Shown: one piece after another, positions 481-8,656 of the stretch
How the letters are laid out: each line of letters begins with the position of its first letter
Numbering within the stretch: position 1 is the first letter of the stretch
IMG/VR virus record: IMGVR_UViG_2675903495_000009
DNA length: 8,656 nt
Source: a virus
Taxonomy: Duplodnaviria; Heunggongvirae; Uroviricota; Caudoviricetes
Strand: one strand, 5' to 3'
Program-made: the position numbers and the translations under genes
Notes under the pieces: model-generated
Seen by the model: the letters and a program-made list of their open reading frames with translations, nothing else
The model's database searches: none
What the model was told of the DNA's origin: nothing

Positions 481-816
481 ATGAAGTGGATTGTGATTGA
501 TACAGTTATCCAGCCATCATGCGGAATATCTTTTTCAGTCATATGGAGTAAAATAAAATTAATAATCTGGTATCAATCGGATGCTTTCTTACCTCCTGAA
601 AGTATATTTACACTGACTCACACAGGCATCATGCTCAATAACAAAGTGCTACCTGTAACCATTTACAACGTAGTACCATTCAATAAAACATTCTGGAATT
701 CAATCAAAAATAGCCAGGAATGCCCTACAAATACAGATAACGTATTGAATGAATGCTTTAATAACCGTTGCACTCTGCAAATATGTCCTTATGGACTAAA
801 ACAACAAAGTCCATAA
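481..816 (+). CDS. Hypothetical protein (111 aa, 5 Cys) in AT-rich cargo island, opposite strand to the phage genes
   Basis: ATG preceded by AAGGAA 6 nt upstream. A 111-codon open frame in roughly 33% GC DNA is unlikely by chance. 6 of 13 Ile codons are ATA. No recognisable domain. Confidence 0.35.
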
Positions 817-840: not shown

Positions 841-872
841 TCAATATAAACAGCCCCTCCGGAGAGGGGCTG
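841..872 (-). terminator. Rho-independent terminator candidate (minus-strand orientation)
   Basis: Perfect 9-bp stem cagcccctc/gaggggctg with loop cgga at 851..872. On the minus strand it is followed by UUUAUAUU (plus 841..850). No U-tract on the plus side. Confidence 0.45.
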
Positions 873-1212
873 GAGAGTGGCGCTATGTGCCATTGCATGG
901 TGCCGGGTGCCTCCCGGTGAATTCAGTACCAGCACCTGAATCCGCGATTATCCCATATACCTACTCGCTGATTGCCCCTCCGCACAGGGGGATTCACCAT
1001 GCCAGTTTCTTTTAACAAACTCCCCGCAAACCAGACAACAGTCAACCGCCTGAATTGTGAAGTATTTAAAAATTTCTCCCGCTAACTGATACCCGGCTAA
1101 CAGTCTGGCGTTTTCTTTTTCAGCAACGGGAAAGCAACAACCACCACACCCGCCACCAGCACACCGTCAGCCAGCACTTTTTACCGTAACAGGTGATAAT
1201 CCAGATATGTAT

Positions 1213-1676: not shown

Positions 1677-1753
1677 TGGCGCGCTGTACTGGATTCGAAC
1701 CAGTGACCGATTGCTTAGAAGGCAATTGCTCTGTCCGGCTGAGCTAACAACGC
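1677..1753 (-). tRNA. argO: tRNA-Arg (anticodon UCU)
   Basis: Cloverleaf read by hand: acceptor GCGTTGT/ACAGCGC, anticodon loop CUUCUAA, T-loop GGTTCGAATCC, 3' discriminator G + CCA encoded. Symbol given by positional analogy to the ileZ-argN-argO trio of Stx phages; uncertain. Confidence 0.85.
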
Positions 1754-1766
1754 ATGATGCAGATAA

Positions 1767-1843
1767 TGGACCGCCATCGGGGACTTGAACCCCGCGCAGC
1801 CAGCTTCGAAGGCTGGCGCTCTTTCCTGATGAGCTAATGGCGG
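1767..1843 (-). tRNA. argN: tRNA-Arg (anticodon UCG)
   Basis: Acceptor CCGCCAT/ATGGCGG, anticodon stem-loop CCAGC-CUUCGAA-GCUGG, T-arm CGGGG-TTCAAGT-CCCCG, CCA encoded. The 5' C is unusual, so the 5' end may be off by 1 nt. Symbol by positional analogy; uncertain. Confidence 0.8.
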
Positions 1844-1850
1844 TATGTGA

Positions 1851-1926
1851 TGGTGGCCCTTGCTGGATTTGAACCAGCGACCTGGCGATTATGAGTCGCT
1901 CGCTCTCACCACTGAGCTAAAGGGCC
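1851..1926 (-). tRNA. ileZ: tRNA with CAU anticodon, near-identical to E. coli tRNA-Ile2 (lysidine, reads AUA)
   Basis: GGCCCTTTAGCTCAGTGGTGAGAGCGAGCGACTCATAATCGCCAGGTCGCTGGTTCAAATCCAGCAAGGGCCACCA differs at only a few positions from ileX as I recall it. Ile2 versus Met cannot be settled from sequence alone. Confidence 0.85.
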
Positions 1927-1966
1927 GGGAGCCGCATAATAACGACGCGTAATTAATTCTTCAATA

Positions 1967-3034
1967 TCATCCGTTCTGGCTGACTAAATCCTGTACTTCC
2001 CGAACCGTCTGCTCAAAACGTTCAGTCTCCAGCTCAACGCCAATTGCACGACGCCCGAGCGCCAGTGCCGCTTTCACTGTCGAACCCAACCCCATGAAAA
2101 AATCTGCAATCAGGTCACCCGGACGACTGCTAGCGCTGATTATCTGCTGCAGCATTTCTGCCGGTTTTTCGCACGGATGTTTCCCGGGATAGAACTGCAC
2201 CGGTTTATGCGTCCACACATCGGTATACGGCACCTGCACCGTCACGCCAAAATACCGCCGCAGATGTTTATATTCACTCAGCAGCTCCGCATACTGCCGG
2301 TTCAGTGAGGTATACGTATCCACCAGCTGGTGGTGGAGCTTTTCCAGTTCACCACGCCGATGCTTCTCTTCTGCCACCCGGGCAAACAGCGCCTGTAATT
2401 TCAGATAATCGCTTTCATTCGGCAACTGCCACTGACCGGCACTGAACCAGTGCGACACCATGTTTTTCTTTCCTGTGGCATCTGCAATCTGTTTTGCCGT
2501 TATCCCCAGGGCAGCTCGCGCATCACGAAAGTAAGAAATCAGCGGGGCCATCACATNNNNNNNNNNNNNNNNNNNNNNNNNNNNNNNNNNNNNNNNNNNN
2601 NNNNNNNNNNNNNNNNNNNNNNNNNNNNNNNNNNNNNNNNNNNNNNNNNNNNNNNNNNNNNNNNNNNNNNNNNNNNNNNNNNNNNNNNNNNNNNNNNNNN
2701 NNNNNNNNNNNNNNNNNNNNNNNNNNNNNNNNNNNNNNNNNNNNNNNNNNNNNNNNNNNNNNNNNNNNNNNNNNNNNNNNNNNNNNNNNNNNNNNNNNNN
2801 NNNNNNNNNNNNNNNNGGTTTCAGCACCCGCCAGAACTGCGCCAGACACTGGTCCAGCCACTTCAGGTAATCATCGTCGCCCTTCCACTGGTTATCCCAG
2901 CCCTCAGGCTTCACTTTAAAGTACGGCGGGTCCGTGACTATCAGGTCAACAGAATTTTCGGGTAACGACCGGATAAATTCCAGGCAGTCGGCGTTGATTA
3001 ACTCACAACTGGATATTTTTACAGTATTAAGCAT
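1967..3034 (-). CDS. DNA methyltransferase (N6-adenine/N4-cytosine, beta class), phage-type
   Basis: 355 aa. N-terminal VTDPPYF (catalytic motif IV, DPPY) and C-terminal FFMGLGST (AdoMet-binding motif I, FxGxG) in the order typical of beta-class MTases. The middle (2557..2816) is masked. No adjacent restriction endonuclease, so apparently orphan. Confidence 0.9.
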   Translation of the reverse strand: MLNTVKISSCELINADCLEFIRSLPENSVDLIVTDPPYFKVKPEGWDNQWKGDDDYLKWLDQCLAQFWRVLKXXXXXXXXXXXXXXXXXXXXXXXXXXXXXXXXXXXXXXXXXXXXXXXXXXXXXXXXXXXXXXXXXXXXXXXXXXXXXXXXXXXXXXXXVMAPLISYFRDARAALGITAKQIADATGKKNMVSHWFSAGQWQLPNESDYLKLQALFARVAEEKHRRGELEKLHHQLVDTYTSLNRQYAELLSEYKHLRRYFGVTVQVPYTDVWTHKPVQFYPGKHPCEKPAEMLQQIISASSRPGDLIADFFMGLGSTVKAALALGRRAIGVELETERFEQTVREVQDLVSQNG

Positions 3035-3128
3035 GGATCATTAAGCCTGTCTCTGATAGGCTCATTCTGCTTTTGCGCAAAGCAGTGGGCCTGAGGTTTG
3101 CTTGTGAACCCAACGCATGAGCAGATGG

Positions 3129-3155
3129 CTGGTGGGTGCCCCTAACACCCACCAG
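3129..3155. other. Stable 10-bp perfect hairpin without U-tract between the small late ORF and the methylase gene
   Basis: ctggtgggtg-cccctaa-cacccaccag. Possible processing or attenuation element; function unknown. Confidence 0.3.
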
Positions 3156-3170
3156 CCGCCCATTTACCAC

Positions 3171-3198
3171 AAATAAAAAAGCCTTCACTGCGGAAGGC
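3171..3198 (-). terminator. Rho-independent terminator candidate overlapping the stop of CDS 3185..3382
   Basis: Minus-strand gccttc-cgcagt-gaaggc hairpin (plus 3181..3198) followed by UUUUUUAUUU (plus 3171..3180). Confidence 0.5.
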
Positions 3199-3382
3199 GT
3201 CTGTAACAACCGAACTGATAGTCTGCCAGACCCGCCATAACCAGCTGGGTCAGTATTAACTGGCAGCGTTCGCGTGAAAGGTAAGTATTCTGCGCTATCT
3301 CCCCGACTGTCGCCGGTTCGGTAACGCTTAATTCATTAAACACCACTCTGGCGGTTTCTGTCATATCCTGCTGTTTTAGCAT
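3185..3382 (-). CDS. Small hypothetical protein (65 aa), possible winged-helix/HTH DNA-binding protein; first gene after PR'/tR'
   Basis: MLKQQDMTETARVVFNELSVTEPATVGEIAQNTYLSRERCQLILTQLVMAGL... with a ggaaaaggaaaag Shine-Dalgarno region upstream. The helix-turn-helix-like segment TVGEIAQNTYLSRERCQLIL is judged by eye. Confidence 0.5.
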   Translation of the reverse strand: MLKQQDMTETARVVFNELSVTEPATVGEIAQNTYLSRERCQLILTQLVMAGLADYQFGCYRRLPQ

Positions 3383-3499
3383 GTCTTTTCCTTTTCCGGT
3401 TAACGTGACACACCAATAACTCTTGTCGAAAAAGCCAGCAAGCTGAAAGACAGGTATTCACCGCCACCAGCGCGTTTACTGTACTGACGCGATTTCAGT

Positions 3500-3526
3500 C
3501 ATAAAAAACCCGCTCGGCGGCGGGTT
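3500..3526 (-). terminator. tR'-like intrinsic terminator of the short PR' transcript
   Basis: Minus-strand acccgc-cgccga-gcgggu hairpin followed by UUUUUUAU, about 40-65 nt downstream of the PR' -10. Confidence 0.65.
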
Positions 3527-3559
3527 GTAGAAACTCTTCTAACGTCAGGCATAAAACGC

Positions 3560-3601
3560 CCATCGTTATGACGAATTTACCACAGATTCCGGAAAAATCA
3601 A
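3560..3601 (-). promoter_or_regulatory. Lambda-type late promoter PR' with qut and pause-inducing element
   Basis: On the minus strand, immediately after the Q2 stop: TTGATT (-35, plus 3596..3601), 16-nt spacer, TAAATT (-10, plus 3574..3579), then cgtcat-AACGATGGG. This matches the lambda PR' arrangement TAAATT-N6-AACGATGGG as I recall it. Confidence 0.7.
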
Positions 3602-3606
3602 CCTTG

Positions 3607-4354
3607 TTACCTAGTTACCTTTTTTAACTGCCGCTCAGCCCATGCTTCTTCAATATCAAACCGGGTCACCAGCGCATCATAAAATTTCTTAACTGTTTTT
3701 TCCCATGACGCGCGTGTTATCTGGTTTGTCACCTCGCATATAGCATTAAATGCCTCCGTTGATGGTAGTCTTTCATAGCCACGACCACCANNNNNNNNNN
3801 NNNNNNNNNNNNNNNNNNNNNNNNNNNNNNNNNNNNNNNNNNNNNNNNNNNNNNNNNNNNNNNNNNNNNNNNNNNNNNNNNNNNNNNNNNNNNNNNNNNN
3901 NNNNNNNNNNNNNNNNNNNNNNNNNNNNNNNNNNNNNNNNNNNNNNNNNNNNNNNNNNNNNNNNNNNNNNNNNNNNNNNNNNNNNNNNNNNNNNNNNNNN
4001 NNNNNNNNNNNNNNNNNNNNNNNNNNNNNNNNNNNNNNNNNNNNNNNNNNNNNNNNNNNNNNNNNNNNNNNCTACCGGTTTTATTTCTGCCGGAAGTTTT
4101 CTCAACGCCGCCACACGATCGCACCGACTGAGTGCATAATCTGCCAGTAATTCTGTTGCCCGCGCCCTGTCATTCATACTGATGCCCATTTTCCCCAGGA
4201 ACGCAGAAAACCCCATCTCAGCCCGATTCTGTGTCATGCCCTGCGCGGCCATCACATCAGTGATACTCAGCGCATCTTTTGACGTTGAGGCCGATGCATC
4301 GGTCAGGCAAGGGGATTTTGGGGAGTAGTATTTCGGTAAATCTTCCAGTTTCAT
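3607..4354 (-). CDS. Q: Late antiterminator Q, lambda-Q family (copy 2, adjacent to PR')
   Basis: N-terminus MKLEDLPKYYSPKSP...TDVMAAQGMTQNRAEMG resembles lambda Q (MRLESVAKFHSPKSP...TDVMAAMGMAQSQAGFG). C-terminal frame ...ASWEKTVKKFYDALVTRFDIEEAWAERQLKKVTR* resembles the lambda Q C-terminus. The interior 3791..4071 is masked. The span is 748 nt, not a multiple of 3, and about 38 codons longer than copy 1, so integrity is unverified. Confidence 0.7.
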
Positions 4355-4430
4355 TTTTTGACCTGCTCTTCATGCATTATGGGGTAAATCTTCACCCCCA
4401 GACGTCCACCAGATACTGGCTGACCACGAA
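4072..4430. repeat. Direct repeat, copy 2 of the rusA-3'/Q-5' module (partner 5153..5511, offset 1081 bp, about 92% identity by eye)
   Basis: Base-by-base comparison shows scattered substitutions only, so these are diverged copies rather than an assembly duplicate. Confidence 0.85.
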
Positions 4431-4816: not shown

Positions 4817-5435
4817 TGTCTGGTTGTTCAAAAGAAACGCTCCATCTTACTGCTGTCAGTTCGTTTATTACTGTATCTGCGCGGATTGCCGGGCNNNNNN
4901 NNNNNNNNNNNNNNNNNNNNNNNNNNNNNNNNNNNNNNNNNNNNNNNNNNNNNNNNNNNNNNNNNNNNNNNNNNNNNNNNNNNNNNNNNNNNNNNNNNNN
5001 NNNNNNNNNNNNNNNNNNNNNNNNNNNNNNNNNNNNNNNNNNNNNNNNNNNNNNNNNNNNNNNNNNNNNNNNNNNNNNNNNNNNNNNNNNNNNNNNNNNN
5101 NNNNNNNNNNNNNNNNNNNNNNNNNNNNNNNNNNNNNNNNNNNNNNNNNNNNCTGCCGGTTTTATTTCTGCCGGGAGTTTTCTTAACGCCGCCACGCGAT
5201 CACACCGACTGAGTGCATATTCTGTCAGCAATTCTGTTGCCCGCTCTCTGTCATTCATACTAATGCCCATTTTCCCAAGGAACGCAGAAACCCCCATCTC
5301 AGCCCGATTCTGTGTCATGCCCTGCGCGGCCATCACATCAGTGATACTCAGCGCATCTTTCGACGTTGAGGCCGATGCATCAGTCAGGCCGGGGGATTTT
5401 GGGGAGTAGTATTTCGGTAAATCTTCCAGTTTCAT
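4800..5435 (-). CDS. Q: Late antiterminator Q, lambda-Q family (copy 1) with C-terminal extension
   Basis: 211 aa, in frame across the 258-nt mask. N-terminus about 95% identical to copy 2. The C-terminus ...IRADTVINELTAVRWSVSFEQPDNDFYP* runs about 16 aa past the position where lambda Q ends (...NILNAVTR*). Its ATG overlaps the rusA stop (ATGA). No PR'-like promoter follows it. Confidence 0.75.
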   Translation of the reverse strand: MKLEDLPKYYSPKSPGLTDASASTSKDALSITDVMAAQGMTQNRAEMGVSAFLGKMGISMNDRERATELLTEYALSRCDRVAALRKLPAEIKPAXXXXXXXXXXXXXXXXXXXXXXXXXXXXXXXXXXXXXXXXXXXXXXXXXXXXXXXXXXXXXXXXXXXXXXXXXXXXXXXXXXXXXXXPAIRADTVINELTAVRWSVSFEQPDNDFYP

Positions 5436-5511
5436 TTTTTGACCTGCCCTTCAAGCATTATGGGATAAATCTTCACCCCCAGACGTCCACCAGATACTGG
5501 CTGAGCACGAA
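5153..5511. repeat. Direct repeat, copy 1 of the rusA-3'/Q-5' module (partner 4072..4430)
   Basis: See partner entry. Confidence 0.85.
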
Positions 5512-7516: not shown

Positions 7517-7579
7517 CACTATGACGGTTAAACAGATGACGATCAGGGCGATTAACATCGCCTTTTGCTGCTTCATAGC
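7517..7579 (-). CDS. hokD: Hok-family type I toxin, HokD/RelF-like (visible N-terminal 20 codons; rest inside mask 7267..7516)
   Basis: MKQQKAMLIALIVICLTVIV matches the HokD/RelF N-terminus as I recall it (MKQQKAMLIALIVICLTVIVTALVTRKDLCEV...). AAGGAG Shine-Dalgarno 9 nt upstream. Expected length about 50 aa, so the stop should fall near 7430 inside the mask. Confidence 0.8.
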
Positions 7580-7867
7580 CTGCTTCTCCTTGCCTTTCGG
7601 CACGTAAGAGGCTAACCTAGATTTGCCGTTCATAGATTGAGCCTCAGATTAATGTTAAGCGTCTTGCCGGACGCGTAATGTTAACTGGGGCTTTTCTCTA
7701 TCTGCCTTTTGGTGTTCATGCCTGAGACAGATAGCCTCAAGCACCCGCTGCAATTCTACTTAACTCTCCTTTTCCCGCAAACCGTTTTTATCCCCAGCGG
7801 CAAATCGAATACACCACCAGCGCCACCGCCATCGCAATTCCTACCGTTGTTAATGCTTCAGGCCAGG

Positions 7868-8386: not shown

Positions 8387-8617
8387 TTAACCCGCAGTGC
8401 TTTCAACTGATGAGGGGAACAAAATCTTTTCATCAAACCCTGCATTCATATCATGAACAGCAACACACCAATCCATCGACGAACGATTATCAAGAGCCTC
8501 CATGATTTCATCCATGCGGCGTAGGTCATACAGGTAAATGCTTTTATCGCCAATGGTGTAAAAGCCAATTTTTTTCGGTGATGGATGAGGTGTACTGGCA
8601 ATAGCGGACACTACCAT
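8387..8617 (-). CDS. Hypothetical protein (76 aa); first 10 codons lie in the right arm of the inverted repeat
   Basis: MVVSAIASTPHPSPKKIGFYTIGDKSIYLYDLRRMDEIMEALDNRSSMDWCVAVHDMNAGFDEKILFPSSVESTAG. No clear Shine-Dalgarno. An in-frame TAA four codons upstream rules out extension beyond the window. Confidence 0.35.
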   Translation of the reverse strand: MVVSAIASTPHPSPKKIGFYTIGDKSIYLYDLRRMDEIMEALDNRSSMDWCVAVHDMNAGFDEKILFPSSVESTAG

Positions 8618-8656
8618 TTGTTCTTTTTTTAAGCAGCCATCTGATGATATTTTTCC
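8586..8656. repeat. Right arm of the perfect 71-bp inverted repeat (partner 23..93)
   Basis: See partner entry; the match reaches the window edge. Confidence 0.8.

Follow-up and report, generated by a model that had tools for sequence, protein, structure and literature searches.

M.EcoGI and M.EcoGII are DNA methyltransferases of 349 aa that have 333 of their 349 residues in common; both are borne on prophages, and phage 1720a-02 encodes a very similar enzyme (PMC5778455). M.EcoGII, cloned from Escherichia coli C227-11 by Murray et al. in 2018, methylates adenine whatever its sequence context and acts on double-stranded DNA, single-stranded DNA and RNA (PMC5778455). Neither gene is expressed in the lysogen and clones that express them constitutively grow poorly (PMC5778455; restated in PMC12707154), the native strain shows no non-specific methylation (PMC5778455), and the enzymes are probably switched on at induction (PMC5778455; PMC12707154). 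Here we analyse a stretch of 8,656 nt from the tailed-phage record IMGVR_UViG_2675903495_000009 (the window), which, from right to left, represents the late-regulatory region of a lambdoid prophage and carries a gene for a methyltransferase of this kind. Every element listed in an earlier note on this DNA was recovered on the minus strand at the same coordinates (Table 1). A late-controlled orphan methyltransferase is already known, and its sequence is extremely common. What seems undescribed is the conserved, structured leader in front of the methyltransferase gene and the systematic pairing of that gene with one for a minimal winged-helix protein of 65 aa.

The encoded methyltransferase matches PF01555 (N6_N4_Mtase; E=9e-30, 104.7 bits against a cut-off of 26.7) despite 88 masked residues. 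DPPY (motif IV, aa 35-38) precedes FMGLG (FxGxG, motif I, aa 313-317), the order that defines the beta class. At the syntenic locus of E. coli O104:H4 C227-11, which lies in a lambdoid prophage and has the same gene order (Q, 65-aa open reading frame (ORF), methyltransferase, tRNAs), a 349-aa protein annotated "DNA-methyltransferase" is identical at 252 of 264 visible residues (95.5%), a figure that leaves out the masked middle of the protein, presumably its target recognition region. C227-11 has three copies of the gene, and the syntenic copy used here is not assigned to GI or GII. The window enzyme very probably belongs to the M.EcoGI/M.EcoGII family, whose sequence-independent activity is known from a near-identical enzyme; that the family is already characterised had escaped the earlier note, and with a match this close the core of the finding is therefore already known. 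The two loci agree in protein family, motif order, orphan status and genomic setting, and phage 1720a-02 is among the phage matches to the window. They differ in that the window copy has 355 codons as read, with three extra codons inside the mask, a longer C-terminus (...SQNG, as in Stx2_EH1910) and FMGLG in place of FMGSG. Terminators, small ORF and leader are absent from the description of the locus in the M.EcoGII paper (PMC5778455). A sequence search of the PDB returned no M.EcoGII structure, its top matches being generic beta-class methyltransferases. Neither in the window nor in 11 relatives with annotated or called genes does an endonuclease adjoin the gene, which upholds the description of the enzyme as an orphan; a nearby nuclease was one of two findings that the earlier note had said would overturn its proposal.

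In phage lambda, a -10-like element after the late promoter PR' pauses RNA polymerase for loading of the antiterminator Q, and the terminated PR' transcript, the 6S RNA, is 194 nt long. The window has the layout of lambda PR'-tR' and of the StxS locus of the Stx phages, namely a late promoter with a -10-like pause element, an immediate terminator, and cargo genes placed before the lysis genes (PMC7547250), which in the window would be reached by Q-dependent read-through. PR' is constitutive in lambda and Stx phages and by analogy would be so here. The predicted terminated transcript is about 70 nt long as against 258 nt for StxS (PMC7547250), and the window has a second terminator (T2) after the first cargo gene. 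Lambda PR' (TTGA..GGTAAATT) and the corresponding region of C227-11 and Stx2_EH1910 align with the candidate PR', which lies beyond the positions treated in the earlier note and, at 8 of 12 matches, stays under the threshold of a simple promoter scan. The tR' hairpin (3526..3507) has a folding energy of -11.2 kcal/mol (z=-2.6), and a terminator occupies this position in every relative, with a differing stem sequence. The T2 hairpin (3198..3181) has -8.9 kcal/mol (z=-2.65), and a hairpin of -6.9 to -17.4 kcal/mol stands upstream of the leader in 40 of 40 distinct contexts, whatever the upstream gene. Terminator-like sites across the region number five, not clearly above the 2.3+-1.5 found in shuffles, and the case for tR' and T2 therefore rests on their position and conservation. 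The terminated PR'-tR' transcript matched no Rfam family.

The promoter scan found no sigma-70 promoter between tR' and the methyltransferase gene, and in one relative (L080) the leader and the methyltransferase come immediately after a lambda-type PR'-tR'. The earlier note's placement of the gene downstream of a lambda-type PR'/tR' and a second intrinsic terminator, with no convincing sigma-70 promoter between, is thus borne out. Since the gene sits after PR', tR' and T2 without an intervening promoter, Q-dependent late transcription would be the most economical reading, and it fits the published views. In the window T2 reads as a canonical intrinsic terminator; across the family, it is the hairpin that is conserved.

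The leader that follows T2 is 79-85% identical to its counterparts in Klebsiella, Salmonella, Buttiauxella and Citrobacter, whereas the synonymous sites of the flanking genes are only 40-57% identical. To judge from these alignments its conservation matches that of coding positions 1 and 2, at a divergence where synonymous sites have become saturated, which argues for purifying selection on a non-coding stretch. A coding role (60-aa ORF, 3027-3209) was rejected, as close relatives differ by 1-nt indels. In Citrobacter (L027) an inserted 110-aa ORF follows the small one, and the leader remains next to the methyltransferase gene. A covariance model built from 32 of the 85 distinct versions collected from viral contigs places a leader ending 16 nt into the methyltransferase ORF at 40 genome loci (E<=1e-24). 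The genera include Escherichia, Salmonella, Citrobacter, Klebsiella, Enterobacter, Kluyvera, Kosakonia, Buttiauxella, Trabulsiella, Mixta, Erwinia and Rosenbergiella, with weak matches in Tatumella and at one Pseudocitrobacter locus. The model has no match upstream of the 45-57% identical methyltransferases of Proteus, Vibrio, Shewanella and Catenovulum. Known RNAs (SAM riboswitch, StxS-like RNA, small RNA) were set aside for want of an Rfam match, the sole match to 3035-3170 being P26 on the opposite strand (24 bits against a gathering score of 36, E=0.13), and a full-text literature search with two leader sequence strings returned unrelated papers only.

The minimum free energy (MFE) fold of the window leader (-63.4 kcal/mol, z=-3.9) has the same architecture as an RNAalifold consensus of 32 sequences. 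That consensus has 33 pairs; 98.4% of its pair cells are standard, against 23-37% when the partners are slid, and 14 cells are changed on both sides, against 7.2+-2.0 in shuffles, with none of 500 shuffles as high. The strongest evidence for structure lies in the first helix, P1. Its 12-bp stem (3146-3157 with 3127-3138), extended by AUGGGC/GCUCAU, has -29.9 kcal/mol (z=-5.2), and none of 200 shuffles is as stable. Single changes in P1 give G.U pairs on this strand and A.C mismatches on the other, Salmonella shows a compensatory change from U-A to C-G plus an inserted A-U pair, and in Tatumella and Pseudocitrobacter the stem sequence is wholly replaced yet still pairs. The hairpin at 3129-3155 described in the earlier note is real; rather than an isolated 10-bp feature, it is part of this larger helix. 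The second domain comprises AAGC/GCUU, AGGC-CAC/GUG-GCCU and an inner hairpin, and is closed by RGRUC pairing with a GAUCY that ends two bases before the AUG. In the hairpin at 3067..3085 a pair is U-A in the window, U.G in L002 and L007, and C-G in L006. The segment UGAGCCUAUCAGAG served as a search anchor, and in an independent genome set it is still at least 90% conserved at most positions.

Two further observations concern the leader sequence. GCUCAU (3117-3122), on the 3' strand of P1, can also pair with AUGAGC (3059-3064) of UGAGCCUAUCAGAG; a two-state switch is possible, and the few informative variants neither favour nor oppose it. The start of the leader (TGTGGTAAAT-ATGGGCG, 3158-3172) repeats the PR' -10 region and initially transcribed sequence (TGTGGTAAATTCGTCATAACGATGGGCG, 3559-3583) minus the middle 11 nt.

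No GGAGG-type Shine-Dalgarno (SD) sequence precedes the methyltransferase AUG. The invariant UGAUC at -6..-2 is complementary to the GAUCA of the 16S rRNA 3' end, and its upstream partner (GGAUCAC in some lineages) mimics that 3' end. In predicted folds, the bases at -6..-1 form the 3' strand of a long-range helix in 81 of 81 distinct versions. With no proper SD, translation of the methyltransferase should be throttled or gated, and we lean slightly towards the view that the leader acts on this step.

The 65-aa ORF shows codon-position identities of 0.84-0.88, 0.91-0.94 and 0.42-0.57 (positions 1, 2 and 3; against Klebsiella, Salmonella, Buttiauxella and Citrobacter), a pattern that marks it as a real, selected gene. 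Its product is 100% identical to a very widespread protein; all homologues found are Enterobacterales, with at least 81% identity among the best 120, and NCBI records name them "TrmB family" or "DprA-like winged helix". The match to Pfam TrmB (E=0.0026) is below the cut-off, and there is no other Pfam match. An AlphaFold2 model (mean predicted local distance difference test score, pLDDT, 92) has three helices and a beta-hairpin wing (H-H-H-wing). Foldseek relates it to MarR/OhrR, to IclR N-terminal domains and to the N-terminal winged helices of O-methyltransferases (query TM-score, TMq, <=0.80; E ~1e-3). From the model we confidently assign a generic minimal winged-helix fold of the DNA-binding type. 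The exact protein is encoded 150 nt upstream of the methyltransferase behind three unrelated Q families. Among 142 loci with the methyltransferase leader, the ORF is adjacent in 131, separated by a 522-nt insertion in 2 and missing in 8; with the leader and methyltransferase present in those 8 without it, the ORF appears to be a frequent but dispensable companion. A role in defence or anti-defence was rejected, PADLOC giving one match of 14 bits, at chance level. In the 5' untranslated region (UTR) of this ORF, a motif at 3405-3441 (-) is kept across genera, AGAGTTATYNGTRTGTCAY, and TTGCTG stands 17 nt before its TAT; either an RNA element or a weak promoter-like arrangement is conceivable here.

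We propose the following sequence of events. PR' would fire constantly, with most transcripts stopping at tR' and those that leak through stopping at T2, so that at the termination efficiencies we infer the methyltransferase would not be transcribed in the lysogen. After induction, Q-modified RNA polymerase would pass both terminators and transcribe the 65-aa gene, the leader, the methyltransferase gene, the tRNAs and the lysis genes. In this transcript the leader is predicted to form a long 5' hairpin followed by a multi-helix domain, closed by a helix between RGRUCA and the UGAUC immediately before the AUG, and, to go by its conservation and predicted structure, the folded leader together with the poor ribosome-binding site would throttle or gate translation. 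The enzyme would then methylate replicating and packaged phage DNA late in the cycle, and the progeny would resist many restriction systems in the next host. This last step is taken from the literature, in which activity was shown by others for the near-identical enzyme and the biological role was proposed. Taken as a whole, the chain from Q-gated late transcription through leader-throttled translation to phage DNA methylation is in our judgement probably right.

A number of points weigh against this proposal, whose transcription, translation and methylation steps are all predictions. The Q gene beside PR' looks disrupted in this window, which the earlier note had missed. Its N-terminal part and C-terminal 41 aa both match PF03589 (E=6e-15 and E=1e-6). 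A tblastn comparison puts aa 1-94 at 4354..4073 and aa 214-273 at 3789..3607, the C-terminal 61 codons being in another frame than the N-terminal 94; the gene reads as frameshifted across a stretch of masked bases (3791-4071), where it falls 74 nt short of the 355 nt that all relatives have. The other, upstream Q copy breaks off after codon 93, where DNA of another phage takes over. Should the masks preserve length, which they possibly do not, this prophage is therefore without an intact Q of its own, and late expression here may depend on Q from another prophage or be dead. A second mask (2557-2816) hides 260 nt of the methyltransferase gene. Damage there was the other finding that the earlier note had said would overturn its proposal; the frame is kept across the mask, and a stop codon inside it is possible. 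On the side of the RNA elements, the clean U-run after the T2 hairpin (7-8 U in 9) is confined to E. coli-type versions, the same position in most other lineages holding UUUCUGCUG or less, and double termination is therefore not a family-wide rule. Retrieval with two conserved anchors inflates the apparent conservation of the viral leader set, and most leader columns never vary and are uninformative on structure. Mean predicted unpairedness at -8..+3 is 0.35, only moderately lower than the 0.48 obtained with the upstream part shuffled, and 62 of 74 distinct versions form the outer pair of the closing helix containing the predicted anti-SD, where chance alone would give 57. This helix hardly varies, and its support is therefore mainly conservation and thermodynamics.

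The state of the Q genes raises the alternative that the module is an inert, decaying remnant, with one Q frameshifted, the other truncated and the masked methyltransferase perhaps damaged. This reading, which is independent of those that follow, is unlikely but deserves to be taken seriously. The different frames and missing 74 nt of the proximal Q, the duplicated segment of RusA 3' end and Q 5' end with foreign DNA between its copies, the perfect 71-nt inverted repeat at the window end, and the cryptic Qin-like prophages found among relatives of the region would all agree with it. Set against these are the methyltransferase itself, whose two visible parts share one frame with no defect in 267 codons and whose hidden stretch exceeds by 9 nt the 251 nt that every relative has, which fits an in-frame difference of three codons; the small ORF, identical to a very widespread protein; the possible action in trans of a same-type Q from another prophage; and the uncertain length of the masks. 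An internal promoter could also free the gene from Q. The leader opens with a -10-like sequence (TGgTAAATG, ~3163-3171) that might serve as a weak extended -10 promoter, and control would then be Q-independent and mainly translational. The leader start (TGTGGTAAAT..ATGGGCG) does resemble the PR' -10 region, TGtGAAAAT stands at the same position in some lineages, and genes are commonly laid out with a promoter and a 5' stabilising hairpin after a terminator. The hexamer, however, has no T at -7 in the window and no A at -11 in other lineages, no -35 accompanies it, the promoter scan does not call it, and the native strain is free of non-specific methylation (PMC5778455), which stands against such a promoter. 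A search of the leader and of the small-ORF 5' UTR for a promoter gave only weak, inconsistent -10-like strings, and we keep this explanation as a very slight possibility.

The linked winged-helix gene suggests two further alternatives; the regulator is the small protein in the first, and the small protein or the methyltransferase in the second. The earlier note saw in it a possible controller (C) protein, that is, a transcription factor binding module DNA and timing or limiting methyltransferase transcription. As in the systems of C.PvuII, C.AhdI and C.Esp1396I, a small predicted DNA-binding protein is encoded just upstream of a DNA-modification gene; its fold is confidently of the DNA-binding type, linkage to the methyltransferase is tight, and each of the two genes has a conserved non-coding stretch in front of it (3405-3423 and the leader). 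The winged helix that the note had perceived is thus present, and a search against winged-helix and C-protein families agrees with the former and not the latter. C proteins have an all-helical Xre/HTH_3 fold, whereas this one is of MarR/IclR/TrmB type with no HTH_3/Xre match; the module has no endonuclease to control, no dyad C-box-like repeat is seen in alignments around it, the promoter scan offers no promoter on which to act, and eight of the 142 loci do without the ORF. The leader changes, G.U-tolerant on the sense strand only, point to an RNA over a DNA operator. We regard transcriptional control by this protein as very improbable. A gate of the com-mom type would place control at the RNA, with a translation-inhibiting leader opened late by the 65-aa protein or by the methyltransferase, so that a toxic enzyme appears only at the lytic end. 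In the com-mom operon of phage Mu and the com-like/hia5 operons of Mu-like prophages, a host-toxic, broad-range DNA modifier is likewise made late (PMC6483171; PMC3299994). There too an ORF of about 60 aa and an mRNA structure that hides the start precede the modifier, which protects from many restriction enzymes. Mu Com binds a hairpin beside the translation-inhibition structure of mom (PMC6483171), and Mu-like prophages put com-like genes before non-specific adenine methyltransferases (PMC3299994). The window module resembles these in its small ORF, immediately upstream in 131 of 142 leader-bearing loci, and in a structured, conserved leader with a paired initiation region. The likeness ends at the proteins and at transcription. 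Com is a zinc-finger RNA binder (~62 aa, Cys4), whereas the 65-aa protein, rejected as such a finger, has two Cys and a MarR/IclR-like winged helix, and its RNA binding and trans-activation are purely hypothetical; Mom is not a methyltransferase and Hia5-type enzymes are alpha-class, as against the beta-class enzyme here; and Mu mom transcription depends on the C activator and Dam/OxyR, where Q antitermination would serve in the window. The eight loci with leader and methyltransferase but no small ORF, and the 110-aa ORF between small ORF and methyltransferase in Citrobacter, also count against such a gate, which we consider quite improbable. The broader idea, that the leader is an undescribed cis-regulatory RNA family for M.EcoGII-type methyltransferases and, with the 65-aa protein or the methyltransferase itself, an analogue of com-mom, is speculative and on present evidence unlikely. 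We retain Q-gated late transcription, with translation throttled at the leader, as the preferred reading.

Table 1. Coordinates of the methyltransferase module and of other features in the window.
Feature	Position	Strand	Details
Methyltransferase gene	1967..3034	-	Beta-class N6-adenine DNA methyltransferase, M.EcoGI/M.EcoGII family (very probable); 355 codons; PF01555 and identity to C227-11
Methyltransferase start, UGAUCC-AUG	3032..3040	-	Start codon with weak, non-canonical ribosome-binding segment; GATC invariant
Methyltransferase leader (5' UTR)	3035..3170	-	Conserved, structured, ~135 nt; conservation, fold, covariance model
Leader segment UGAGCCUAUCAGAG	3051..3064	-	Nearly invariant; invariant in 32 sequences
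Leader hairpin CUGCUUU-GCGCA-AAAGCAG	3067..3085	-	In MFE fold
Predicted anti-SD GGUUCA	3105..3110	-	RGRUCA in relatives; pairs just 5' of AUG in consensus and single-sequence folds
Leader helix P1	3117..3163	-	AUGGGC/GCUCAU and GGCUGGUGGGUG/CACCCACCAGCC; contains hairpin 3129-3155
T2 intrinsic terminator	3171..3198	-	Stem GCCUUC/GAAGGC and UUUUUUAUUU; overlaps stop codon of 65-aa ORF
65-aa winged-helix protein gene	3185..3382	-	phrog_331 (E=1e-37; function unassigned); 'TrmB family' at NCBI
5' UTR of 65-aa ORF	3383..3500	-	Conserved motif AGAGTTATTGGTGTGTCAC at 3405-3423, good SD AAGGA; alignments
tR' intrinsic terminator	3501..3526	-	7-bp GC stem and U6; ~45-70 nt past predicted start site
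-10-like pause-inducing element AACGATGGG	3559..3567	-	Six bases after TAAATT; invariant compared with lambda
Candidate PR'	3574..3601	-	-35 TTGATT (3596-3601), 16 nt, extended -10 TGgTAAATT (3574-3582)
Proximal antiterminator Q gene	3607..4354	-	Lambda-Q family, PF03589; possibly pseudogene
iraM-like anti-adaptor gene	481-816	+	NF007393, 162 bits; likewise in Stx2 phages and Qin-like prophages
STnc100 small RNA	842-1031	-	Full-length Rfam match, 132 bits against gathering score 47; downstream of tRNAs and 117-aa ORF
tRNA trio	1677..1926	-	Anticodons CAT, TCG (Arg), TCT (Arg); ARAGORN, Rfam, annotations of relatives; usual downstream neighbours
sok antitoxin RNA	7571-7746	-	112 bits; accompanied by start of hok-type ORF (MKQQKAMLIALIVICLTVIV...)

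Read right to left, the window holds DUF968 and RusA genes, a truncated Q copy, a patch of foreign DNA, a RusA 3' fragment, the second Q, PR', tR', the 65-aa ORF, T2, the leader and the methyltransferase gene, followed by the tRNA trio, a 117-aa ORF, the STnc100-type small RNA and, on the other strand, the iraM-like gene. The RusA 3' end and first 93-94 Q codons occur twice (4072-4430 and 5156-5466), and between the Q copies 4570-4884 matches the 3' end of a DnaB-type helicase gene plus an 85-aa ORF of another lambdoid phage (L009, 2147-2461). The region, with duplicated RusA/Q segments and foreign DNA between them, is a recombinant mosaic. The CAT-anticodon tRNA is annotated ileZ or tRNA-Ile in relatives; a promoter-like TTGAAG-17-TATTAT lies at 1936-1964 (-), right after the methyltransferase stop codon and before the trio, and expression of the tRNAs might be independent of Q through this site. 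In the early region, the sok RNA and the hok-type ORF start make up a hok/sok type I toxin-antitoxin locus. A perfect 71-nt inverted repeat (23-93 and 8586-8656), whose right arm ends exactly at the window end, may reflect either a genuine inversion junction joining prophage segments or an artefact of the assembly graph.

The order Q, small ORF, methyltransferase, tRNAs, (stx), holin is annotated in Stx2 phages, where stx2AB comes after the tRNAs, and in E. coli genomes; phiP27, phage 1720a-02 and many E. coli chromosomes have the same gene order. A 2-kb core of the module is matched in 3,384 of 5,426 complete E. coli genomes (closest match 95.9%) and in 292 phage records, and exact-protein searches with the 65-aa and 117-aa ORFs led to relatives at 87-98%. 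Across E. coli, Klebsiella, Salmonella, Buttiauxella and Citrobacter, the Q genes that precede the module come from three unrelated families (PF03589, PF06323, PF06530). In L019 and L024 the 117-aa ORF follows Q directly, with no small ORF, methyltransferase or tRNAs, and the methyltransferase module therefore behaves as a facultative insert. The slot after Q/PR' holds varied cargo upstream of the 65-aa ORF or the methyltransferase in L004, L007, L009, L017 and L021 (for example TfpB, an AAA_15 ATPase, GmrSD with HEPN, HicAB, and a Ser/Thr kinase with a PP2C phosphatase), and looks like a hotspot for defence or moron genes. The methyltransferase (76-96% aa identity) also occurs in records titled Vagococcus, Chryseobacterium, a Geobacteraceae metagenome-assembled genome (MAG) and a Bacillus MAG (L164, L173, L154, L202), and so does the leader except in L202, which the leader-model scan did not cover; these are probably contamination or misbinning of an enterobacterial gene.

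M.EcoGII is at once a phage anti-restriction device and a widely used enzyme for chromatin footprinting and RNA labelling, and the literature that could be searched contains no worked-out account of how the native gene is silenced. Two terminators after PR', a start codon with no true SD, a folded leader and a linked winged-helix gene make that silence testable. Were a com-mom-like RNA gate to prove true, it would explain how lambdoid phages can carry a host-toxic enzyme, with the fold opening only late in the lytic cycle. In many Stx2 phages stx comes directly after the module, so that the toxin transcript runs across the module's elements.

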